A DNA stretch of 32,000 nt from Xylella taiwanensis (lineage in GTDB: Bacteria > Pseudomonadota > Gammaproteobacteria > Xanthomonadales > Xanthomonadaceae): the NCBI RefSeq assembly GCF_013177435.1, contig NZ_CP053627.1, forward strand, positions 1,050,001 to 1,082,000, read 5' to 3'. Each line of letters begins with the position of its first letter. The first letter of the stretch is position 1. Shown piece after piece: positions 6,001 to 9,000 of this stretch. The position numbers were made by a program.

Positions 6001-9000
6001 GCGGTTCCAGCTGAAGATCTGCCCCCCCATGGAGATCTGGCCGTTGTGATCGCTGACCAGGGTGGAGCCGTTGAACTTCTCCAGGATGCCGATGATCGGC
6101 CCAAGCCGGGCATGCTGCTGCTGGGTCCAGGTCTGAACGGCCTCCTGGCCCTGGGCGATCACGGCAGCAGGGACGAACCATTGGTAATACACATTGCGCT
6201 GCATGTCCCCGGAGGCTTCGAGGCGCTCCTCGCTGCTACGCATGGTTGAGGTGTCGGCCCACAGGGCAATGACCTGATCCAGCGCGGCGCGCAGGGTGCC
6301 CGGAGTGGTGCCGGACAATAGCGCTTGAACGGCCGCCAATAAGGCCGGTGACTGGCTGGCGGCTTCTTGCAGATCGCGCACCGCGCCGCTGCCGGTGATG
6401 GCTGGTAAGGCGCGGGCCGCCTCGCTCACGGTCACTTGGGCGTGGGCGCCGTTGTAGTCGCGGTAGAAGTGGTCCAGACCCAATTGCAGGTTGCCAACGA
6501 CGCCGGTGCGGCCATCGCTGCGGGTGTAGGTGCCGCGGCCATCAATGAAATTACCGTCGTTCAAGTTGACGCGCTGGGTGTCGGTGGGCGTCAGGGCGAT
6601 CGAGGCAATGCCCAGGCTGGAGAGGGTGAACAGCTCGTTGGTCTGGGAGCGGCCATCCTGATTGAGATCGCGCCACACGCGCACGTCGGTAAAGCGGGTG
6701 TCGCCGGCATCAAAGACGCCATCCCCGTTGCTGTCCAGATCGCGCAGTGCCTCAAAGCCGGAGGTGGCTTTCTGGCCGTTGGCCAATAGGGTATCGGCAC
6801 CGAACAGTTCGCTGCCGTCATCAATGTGTCCGTTGCCGTTGCGGTCCAGCACTAGCAAGCCGTCATCGGATTTAATCCAGCCGCTGGCGTGTTTGATGCC
6901 GTCGCCGTCGTGATCAAACAGGATGTTTTTACCCGCCGCCACGGTTTCGATGCCGTCGCCATCCAGATCCAGCACCAGCGGGTCGCGGACATCACGCTGA
7001 TAGCCGAACAGGTCATGAAGCAGCGTCATAAAAGCGTCGCTGTCTTTGTGTAGTTGATTGGCCAGGCGCTGGAAGGCATCGCCAAGATGGGTGCGCCAGT
7101 CATGGAGCCTCTGCTTCACCGCATCCACGCCATCTGTGATGCTGTCGCGGATCATCTCTCGCAGATGATCAAACAACGGTTGTATCCAGCGTTTCCAGGT
7201 GGCTTCCGCTCCAGAGAACACATCGGCGCTCCCCTCAGCCAGGGCCTTGGCCATATTCATGGTCCCCTGGAGAAAATCCTGATACCAATGCAGGCCTGCG
7301 GCCATCTGGGAGAACTGTTTTGCTGCATCGCGCACCCCGTCCCAGGTCCAAGATTGGCCGTCGCTCTGCACAACATCGCTGCCCAACTCAGAGATTATTT
7401 TTGCAACCCCGAGTTGCTGTTGGATGAGGGCGCTGTATTGCATGATTGCATCAATCGCGATTTTCGTTGCAATCTCATTTCTGGCAATGGGATCTTGGGC
7501 GGCATGAATAGCACCCGCAACATTGTCATCAATCAGGTCAAAGAGCCTATCGGCCCGTTGATACGGGTCGTAGCCATTCTCCCTATAGTATTTTTCAAGA
7601 TTTTGATAGAACTCGGAATCAGGGTCCATCCCAAGCCCACCCACACCGATAGGGAAGGCGGCGCCCACCGTCCCGGCCCATTTATCCGGCGACAGCCCCA
7701 AGCCTCCTGTTTCTTCTCCTCCTATGGCAGTCCCAACATCTCTTGAAATGACGTTATCAAAAGAAAGTCTTTTATCTCGTATTGCATCCGCCATTACATC
7801 CATTGCCAGCATATTAGAGACACGTTGAAATACAGCCGCATCTATATTCTTGCCCGCCTCCCGTCCGGCCTCATACACCGCACCGCGTACAAACTCTGCA
7901 TAGAAACCTCGCCCCGAATTAATCTCCCCGGCACGTGTCAGCCAATTCGCCAGTCTCGGATCACCACCACCGGCACGGACCGCTTGAGACAAGGTGTTAT
8001 ACATCGCCGGGTAATTCCCCGATTGCCTGTAACTGTCGGCAGTATCTAACTGAGCCTGATTAAAATAAAAATATGCACTCGTCATCATGATTCTCCTTGA
8101 CATGGGATGGTATGGGACTCGACAAAATCAACTATTAACTTCAACTCATTGATTCGCTCCTCTTTGTTTATTGGCCGACTATTACCAATTTTATATTCAA
8201 TAGTGAACAGTCCATCCTTGTCGATGGCTGAATAAAAGTAACCTGGGAAATCATACAAATAGAATGTTTTGTATTCTCCTTCAATTTTCAATTGCCCACT
8301 TGGATAATTTTGAGAAAAAGAGTTGATATAATATTCTTTTGCTGATTTGTCAGGAAAAAAGGCTATGGTGACCCTCGACATTCCGGGTTCACCGAATTTT
8401 CCTGGAGATTTCTCGGCCCCAGAAATATATCCAACATTCTTAAACCAGAATATGATCGTACTAGGCGGAAATTCGTTCAAACCCAATTCGGAGGGAAAAC
8501 TGAAACATTTTTTGTAACTCGAATCACGCGACTGAATCATCATGATTTTATTTGGTTCCTTCACGGCTTCTTTAGCAGAATGTTGATTCCCTCTTTCTTT
8601 CATGTCACTTCTTCCACAAGATATTAAACCGCTGCATGCCATCATGAAAGCGGCGCCAAAAATCGTACGTAATATCAGTGGATGATGGAATAATCTTGCC
8701 GCACTCATATCGACTCCAGCGCAGGATGCCTGCATGTCATCTTTTTTTCTGCCTCCCGGACCACCTGATACACCGCGCCGCGTACACACGGTGCATAGAA
8801 ACCTCGCCCCGAATTAATCTCCCCGGCACGCATCAGCCAATTCGCCAGTCTTGGATCACCGCCACCGGCACGCACCGCTTGAGACAAGGTGTTATACATC
8901 GCCGGGTAATTCCCAGATTGTCTGTAACTGTCGGCAATATTCAATTGCCCCTGATTAAAATAAAAATAGGCACTCGTCATCATGATTCTCCTTGACATGG

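Follow-up and report, generated by a model that had tools for sequence, protein, structure and literature searches.

A predicted FrpC-type self-processing module in an RTX protein of Xylella taiwanensis and the lipoprotein array beside it

We analysed a 32,000-nucleotide stretch of Xylella taiwanensis DNA (contig NZ_CP053627.1, positions 1,050,001 to 1,082,000), which is called the window below and in which coordinates are counted from its first letter. Its largest open reading frame (ORF) encodes an RTX protein. An earlier note on this DNA had proposed that the protein contains a calcium-dependent self-processing module (SPM), cut at an Asp-Pro bond, of the kind known from FrpC of Neisseria meningitidis and ApxIVA of Actinobacillus pleuropneumoniae. 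Our analysis makes it highly probable that an SPM is present in an RTX protein exported through a T1SS (type I secretion system), that it would be cut on exposure to Ca2+ and that the lipoprotein encoded upstream is the likely partner. Judging from the comparisons below, residues 375-550 form a genuine FrpC/ApxIVA-type SPM (Pfam family PF26745).

Identity and key residues of the self-processing module

The RTX ORF extends over 316-8103 on the minus strand and comprises 2595 aa counted from the first ATG; residue numbers below follow this count unless stated otherwise. The interval 6454-6984 corresponds to residues 374-550, and the codons GAC CCG at 6984-6979 encode Asp374-Pro375, both exactly where the earlier note had put them. 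All of the peptide blocks that it quoted were also found in the ORF. The layout of the ORF is as follows.

316-8103, minus strand: ORF of the RTX protein, with 21 HemolysinCabind and 10 HCBP_related stretches (Pfam)
7489-8064, minus strand: conserved, all-alpha N-terminal domain, residues ~14-205 (79 relatives; helical model)
6985-7488, minus strand: variable, helical stretch between the N-terminal domain and the scissile Asp, residues 206-373 (Xylella paralogues; model)
6979-6984, minus strand: codons GAC CCG of Asp374-Pro375, the predicted scissile bond (D in 116/122 and P in 120/122 aligned homologues)
6454-6981, minus strand: predicted SPM, residues 375-550 (6sjw at E = 1e-50; key residues; 54.7% identity; PF26745)
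5689-6408, minus strand: post-SPM region, residues ~566-805 (matched in 117/120 homologues)
484-5571, minus strand: body of RTX nonapeptide and HCBP_related repeats, from residue ~845 (9-10 tandem DNA units)

When residues 335-601 were compared with all PDB chains by phmmer, only two matches were returned, and both were the FrpC SPM. The first was 6sjw (E = 1e-50, 176 bits), in which residues 1-174 of the 179 in the chain were aligned, and the second was 6sjx, the uncleavable P415A form of the same module (E = 3e-50). The alignment with 6sjw begins at the Pro right after the scissile Asp. Global identity to FrpC 415-588 is 54.7% (94/172 positions), and the block-for-block correspondence with the FrpC SPM that the earlier note had described is borne out over the aligned length. 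By these measures the similarity to FrpC is far beyond chance, and generic Asp-rich calcium motifs do not explain the match.

The key residues are known from FrpC, in which the scissile bond is D414-P415, the Ca2+ sites are formed by D419/D421/D423/G424 with D456, by D462-E474, by D499-D511 and by D521-E532, a T-shaped pair is made by W451 and W519, and the structural residues D478 and D579 lie near the cleavage site (PMC7078468). We checked the corresponding positions in an alignment of 122 modules, made up of 120 homologues, the FrpC SPM and the window module. All four Ca2+ sites are kept in the window module (D379/D381/D383/G384 with D414; D420..E432; D457..D468; D479..E490), and their columns are near-invariant across the alignment. 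The Trp pair is kept as W409/W477 and is invariant in 121-122 of the 122 modules. Two key positions depart from FrpC: D579 is replaced by Asn538, and D478 by Ala436 with Asp437 next to it. Asn is the family majority at the D579 column (67/122), and the D579N mutant of FrpC is fully active (PMC7078468). At the D478 column, Ala strongly lowers the cleavage activity of FrpC (D478A; PMC7078468). The family consensus there is V/A followed by Asp (89/122), and FrpC is therefore the outlier at this column. Loss of conserved SPM residues, which the earlier note had named as grounds for giving up its reading, was not found; the two departures are the only ones, and both are at family consensus. The module is also placed N-terminal to the RTX repeats, in a protein with adjacent type I secretion genes. 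The Asp-Pro junction, the full-length similarity, the Ca2+ sites, the Trp pair, the position before the repeats and the T1SS all fit a FrpC-type SPM.

Six relatives (P0136, P0160, P0170, P0175, P0194 and P0203) share the N-terminal domain and have an SPM-like start (DLDGDG), but their junction reads Ser-Pro, not Asp-Pro. Modules of this sort may be non-cleaving or may use another chemistry.

Spread of the module family

The first 800 residues of the RTX protein have at least 869 relatives in the database. The best ones are X. fastidiosa proteins named 'calcium-binding proteins' (64-70% identity), followed by proteins of Xanthomonas, Lysobacter, Nitrosomonas, Pseudomonas and others. Behind N-terminal parts that vary greatly in length, the relatives keep the junction motif DPLxLDLDGDG. 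The Pfam and NCBIfam sets used for our protein scans contained no SPM model, and the family name was taken from precomputed Pfam matches: PF26745 ('SPM') is matched by the identical public 2589-aa protein of X. taiwanensis and also by the X. fastidiosa orthologues. The same locus is present in the complete genomes CP087686.1 and CP011800.1.

Homology of the SPM to segments of RTX proteins from plant and animal pathogens has been described before (PMC3034196; PMC5233953). In published Xylella gene tables, the RTX genes have been named frpC since at least 2009 and have been listed as bacteriocin-like toxins. Because the literature and the precomputed Pfam label already cover Xylella RTX proteins, the window module is not a new kind; by homology it is an uncharacterised member of a large, already labelled family.

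Start codon and layout of the RTX protein

The first ATG of the longest ORF (8103) is probably not used. An AAGGAG Shine-Dalgarno motif lies within CAAGGAGAATCATGATGACG, ahead of the RTX start. The TGA stop of the upstream lipoprotein gene overlaps the ATG of Met6 (ATGA), and Met7 is next to it. Furthermore, the X. fastidiosa orthologues start at the equivalent of Met6 or Met7. For these three reasons we place the real start probably at Met6 (8088) or Met7 (8085); the public X. taiwanensis annotation starts at Met7 and gives 2589 aa. Residue numbers therefore shift by 5 or 6, and the scissile bond becomes D369-P370 or D368-P369. The numbering of the earlier note (D374-P375) is right for the ORF counted from the first ATG and 5 or 6 too high for the protein from its likely start; the window coordinates of the bond are unaffected by this choice. 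The pieces expected after the cut are an N-terminal fragment of ~370 residues and a remainder of 2221 residues.

Conservation of residues 206-373, between the N-terminal domain and the scissile Asp, is limited to Xylella paralogues, and in the AlphaFold model this segment forms long helices with a low predicted local distance difference test score (pLDDT). The post-SPM region (~240 residues, 5689-6408) is kept in 117/120 homologues and had no match in the Pfam set that lacked the PF26745 model. The repeat body consists of 9-10 DNA units of 501 or 555 nt each, which are 76-99% identical. Some of these units are 96-99% identical, and the repeats bring the RTX protein to roughly double the length of its orthologues in X. 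fastidiosa (1035-1377 aa). The repeat body (484-5571) is likely to be prone to assembly collapse or copy-number variation. Both the 501/555-nt units and the 895-bp units described below were found by another repeat search than TRF, which is blind to periods above 500 nt.

The N-terminal domain

An exhaustive HMMER search with the N-terminal domain found 79 relatives, and in nearly all of them the match begins in the first 60 residues. Many of these relatives carry an SPM ~210-310 residues in, which by homology makes the N-terminal domain and the SPM recurrent partners. Among the relatives that lack the SPM, a Pfam scan revealed no other delivery or toxin domains, and the cluster names were uninformative. 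The domain itself had no sequence match in the PDB and no Pfam match above threshold. The AlphaFold model of the N-terminal part is helical (pLDDT 55) and confident for residues 10-140 only. Foldseek with this model retrieved generic helical repeats and nothing specific in the PDB.

A candidate relative was Smlt3024 of Stenotrophomonas maltophilia, a type IV secretion system (T4SS) effector reported to be similar to RTX N-terminal domains, which inhibits growth from the periplasm (PMC6759196). It is neutralised by the lipoprotein Smlt3025, which has a FrpD-like fold, and FrpC/FrpD was proposed in the same work to be an effector/immunity pair (PMC6759196). We rebuilt residues 1-260 of Smlt3024 from the supplement of PMC6759196 and compared them with a 70-sequence profile of the window N-terminal domain. 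The hmmsearch score of Smlt3024 against this profile was -1.5 bits. In hhalign, window residues 14-143 and Smlt3024 residues 3-139 were aligned collinearly, with a probability of 24% when the template had 3 sequences and 6.9% when it had 120; a further run gave 0.95%, and the reversed control had E = 0.51. Over the first ~140 residues the similarity is weak (hhalign E 8e-4 to 5e-3, probability 7-24%) and not significant. The NCBIfam Smlt3024 model NF050128 had no match in the window, whereas the positive control P0219 scored 854 bits. Membership of the N-terminal domain in the Smlt3024 family was rejected on the hmmsearch, hhalign and NF050128 results, with a weak collinear resemblance left. 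By analogy, a Smlt3024-like function of the domain is possible but unsupported.

The two systems are alike in concept, in that an RTX-type N-terminal domain serves as an antibacterial effector in S. maltophilia and a lipoprotein neutralises it. They differ in that Smlt3024 is exported by a T4SS, whereas the window protein has no NF050128 match, no XVIPCD domain and T1SS export. Smlt3025 is annotated with 333 aa (~289 aa from its corrected Met45 start), compared with ~207 aa for the window lipoprotein, and there is no fold match between them.

The lipoprotein array

Directly upstream of the RTX gene lies a tandem array, whose parts are listed here.

7844-12396, minus strand: tandem array of five 895-bp units, each a lipoprotein gene joined to ~260 nt from the 5' end of the RTX gene (exact 895-nt spacing)
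8085-8708, 8980-9603, 9875-10498, 10770-11393 and 11662-12396, minus strand: the lipoprotein copies (array units)
8085-8708, minus strand: the lipoprotein gene that adjoins the RTX gene, 207 aa, with lipobox ..LISC31G (100% identical to FUT69_09290)
8705-8983, minus strand: stub 1, 92 aa, a copy of about the first 86 RTX residues
9600-9878, minus strand: stub 2
10495-10773, minus strand: stub 3
11390-11668, minus strand: stub 4, with its ATG one codon further in

The array separates the RTX gene from the genes of the exporter, and its units are 70-94% identical, without indels between copies. Each unit is wholly coding, with a 207-aa lipoprotein and a 92-aa stub, and has ATGA stop/start overlaps at both junctions; AAGGAG precedes every RTX or stub start. 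The lipoprotein has its lipobox Cys at position 31 and two further conserved Cys. The X. taiwanensis protein FUT69_09290, to which the product of 8085-8708 is identical, bears the name 'Lipoprotein'. The diverged copies share 72-80% aa identity, with ratios of nonsynonymous to synonymous substitution rates (dN/dS) of 0.24-0.43. We found members of the lipoprotein family in Xylella alone (15 clusters), and the same layout with 2-4 lipoprotein copies is seen in X. fastidiosa (L001, L002). The GC content of the array and the gene upstream of it (8001-13000) is 43%, compared with 53-63% for the RTX gene and for the chromosome on either side. The low GC suggests a foreign or fast-evolving origin of the array.

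In N. meningitidis, the outer-membrane lipoprotein FrpD is encoded upstream of frpC and binds FrpC 1-414 at 0.2 nM (PMC5233953). By analogy, the lipoprotein that is encoded directly upstream of the RTX gene and translationally coupled to it is likely to be the partner of the N-terminal fragment. We did not find a match to the lipoprotein in the PDB, FrpD included, with either a single sequence (phmmer) or a profile. Its AlphaFold model (pLDDT 75.5) retrieved nothing at E<=0.001 in Foldseek, and FrpD and Smlt3025 were outside the top 50; the best match was DcrB (E = 9e-3), followed by profilins. All of these sequence and structure searches were thus negative for a likeness of the lipoprotein to FrpD, and synteny is the sole basis of the proposed partnership.

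The stub ORFs are open in both Xylella species (in X. fastidiosa at L002 5313-5585, 6220-6492 and 7109-7381), and their dN/dS of 0.17-0.40 is close to that of the lipoproteins. Over 64 codons, stubs 2 and 3 do not differ from each other, although the lipoprotein genes next to them do. This mosaic indicates recombination within the array, and the sequences suggest that it arose by gene conversion. All X. fastidiosa stubs have Gly where the domain has its invariant Trp54. We consider it more likely that the stubs arose as by-products of unequal crossing over and stay open for the sake of translational coupling than that they are separate copies of a working domain. The earlier note had called the N-terminus, the part copied in the stubs, the business end of the protein. 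An argument from the stubs is weak, as they repeat only ~86 of the 374 residues and the invariant Trp has been lost from those of X. fastidiosa.

Secretion genes and other surroundings

Two type I secretion genes lie upstream of the array.

13977-15398, minus strand: type I secretion membrane-fusion protein, HlyD family (Pfam)
15395-17578, minus strand: ABC transporter for type I secretion, with a C39-like domain at its N-terminus (Pfam)

Between them and the array is a low-GC ORF of 179 aa (12543-13082, minus strand), which has no Pfam/NCBIfam match. Public X. taiwanensis genomes have it annotated as a gene of 169 aa (L003 5657-6166); the corresponding place in X. fastidiosa L001 has no annotated gene. 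Scanning for promoters and terminators yielded fewer sites than chance would give and was only weakly informative.

Comparison with known systems

The closest characterised relatives are the SPMs of N. meningitidis FrpC/FrpA (FrpC 415-591; 6sjw, 6sjx). They share with the window module the Asp-Pro junction, a length of ~176 residues, four EF-hand-like Ca2+ sites and the T-shaped Trp pair. FrpC and the window protein are also alike in that the SPM lies between an N-terminal domain of ~370-400 residues and the RTX repeats, that export is by a T1SS and that the next gene upstream encodes a lipoprotein. They differ in residues (Ala436/Asp437 for D478/N479 and Asn538 for D579), in the flexible loop (FrpC T430-G450), which is two residues shorter in the window module, and in length, as the window protein has 2595 aa with a much longer RTX body and FrpC has 1829 aa. 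In addition, the upstream lipoprotein in the window is unrelated to FrpD and occurs in five copies.

By its description, the ApxIVA SPM of A. pleuropneumoniae (cut at Asp638-Pro639) is likewise of the clip-and-link type and belongs to a large RTX protein that is not cytolytic, although the N-terminal part of ApxIVA is much longer. The 'frpC' proteins of X. fastidiosa (such as XF2759, XF2407 and PD_1427; P0001-P0005) are encoded at an orthologous locus and share with the window the order of ABC transporter, membrane-fusion protein, repeated lipoprotein plus stub, and RTX-SPM gene. Their first 800 residues are 64-70% identical to those of the window protein, and all of them have a PF26745 match. 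They differ in having 2-4 array units against five, RTX proteins of 1035-1377 aa against 2595 aa, and lipoproteins that are only 47-58% identical.

Proposed mechanism and alternatives

By homology with FrpC, the RTX protein would be exported unfolded, with its C-terminus first. In millimolar extracellular Ca2+, the SPM would then fold and strain the Asp374-Pro375 bond. Breakage of this bond would leave a C-terminal aspartic anhydride on the N-terminal fragment of ~370 residues. The anhydride may be hydrolysed, which would release the fragment, or it may be attacked by a nearby lysine, which would give an Asp-Lys isopeptide link. From the analogy in gene order to frpD-frpC, the lipoprotein encoded by the upstream gene would bind the N-terminal fragment. 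Calcium in xylem sap is in the millimolar range, which would be enough for triggering an SPM. We infer Ca2+-dependent autocleavage and Asp-Lys linking by the window module from its similarity to FrpC. In favour of this, natural modules that are 60-98% identical to FrpC were all cleaved and ligated upon testing (PMC12538545).

Four points weigh against this mechanism. Cleavage in any Xylella SPM is deduced from homology. Ala436 aligns with D478 of FrpC, a position at which Ala reduces cleavage. The lipoprotein does not resemble FrpD in sequence or fold. Finally, with 54.7% identity the window module is farther from FrpC than these three tested homologues.

What the released fragment does can be read in two ways. 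It may tentatively be regarded as an antibacterial toxin, which the SPM would free from its 2200-residue carrier, with the five lipoproteins as immunity proteins, one of them cognate and the rest orphan. The precedent is Smlt3024/Smlt3025, together with the proposal that FrpC and FrpD form an effector/immunity pair (PMC6759196). The array also looks like known immunity arrays, being tandem, diverged (72-80% aa identity), low in GC (43%) and confined to one genus, and Xylella 'frpC' genes are annotated as bacteriocins. However, the window N-terminal domain is not detectably related to Smlt3024 (-1.5 bits in hmmsearch, hhalign probabilities of 24% and 6.9%, no NF050128 match), and neither FrpD nor Smlt3025 was retrieved with the model of the lipoprotein. 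A route of import into the target cell is not evident for a T1SS-secreted fragment, and the dN/dS of the lipoproteins (0.24-0.43) indicates purifying, not diversifying, selection.

The second reading, clip-and-link adhesion, seems rather unlikely to us. Here the outer-membrane lipoprotein would hold the fragment on the surface of the producer and the anhydride would link to proteins of the plant, the insect or a neighbouring cell, anchoring the bacterium or the biofilm. The gene order is as in frpD-frpC, with the lipoprotein gene directly upstream and coupled. According to the Lol sorting rule, a residue other than Asp after the lipidated Cys favours the outer membrane, and in the window lipoprotein this residue is Gly. 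Deletion of the SPM in ApxIVA attenuates virulence (PMC7078468), but FrpC changed adhesion only slightly and without statistical significance (PMC5233953). Moreover, the lipoprotein has no FrpD similarity in sequence or fold, and a simple anchor does not need five diverged copies of it.

A more elaborate form of the toxin proposal, which we consider doubtful, is that the whole locus is a calcium-armed effector system served by the T1SS. The SPM would free, or covalently plant, an all-alpha N-terminal effector of ~370 residues, the diverged lipoproteins of the expandable array would bind or neutralise diverse Xylella effector alleles, and the stubs would pass ribosomes on or act as decoys.

It is very improbable that the module is a Ca2+-dependent folding domain in which cleavage is lost or slow, so that the protein acts as one intact polypeptide: Ala436 stands in the FrpC D478 column, where D478A markedly lowers activity, and the Ser-Pro junction of some relatives suggests that the cleavage chemistry is not uniform in the family, but Asp-Pro is intact here (Asp in 116/122 homologues), the family normally has A or V in column 478 and Asp in column 479, none of the Ca2+ ligands and neither Trp is missing, and each natural homologue tested so far cleaves (PMC12538545).

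Implications

For the SPM itself, a module that would be cut and linked as in FrpC changes little, as the family is large, its structure has been solved, it is in use as the NeissLock ligation tool and the window protein already bears the Pfam label. The context of the locus, with its array and the choice between adhesin and toxin, is more interesting than the module. The RTX proteins called 'frpC' in Xylella have long been entered as putative bacteriocins or haemolysins; they are predicted to be processed in Ca2+-rich xylem sap into a reactive N-terminal fragment of ~40 kDa and a repeat carrier of ~2200 residues. Proteomic and antibody work on Xylella RTX proteins should therefore expect two species and possibly covalent adducts. 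If the effector-system proposal were true, it would be the first natural use of clip-and-link chemistry in interbacterial competition. The lipoprotein array offers a tractable system for the FrpC/FrpD question, that is, whether such pairs are an adhesin and its anchor or a toxin and its immunity protein.

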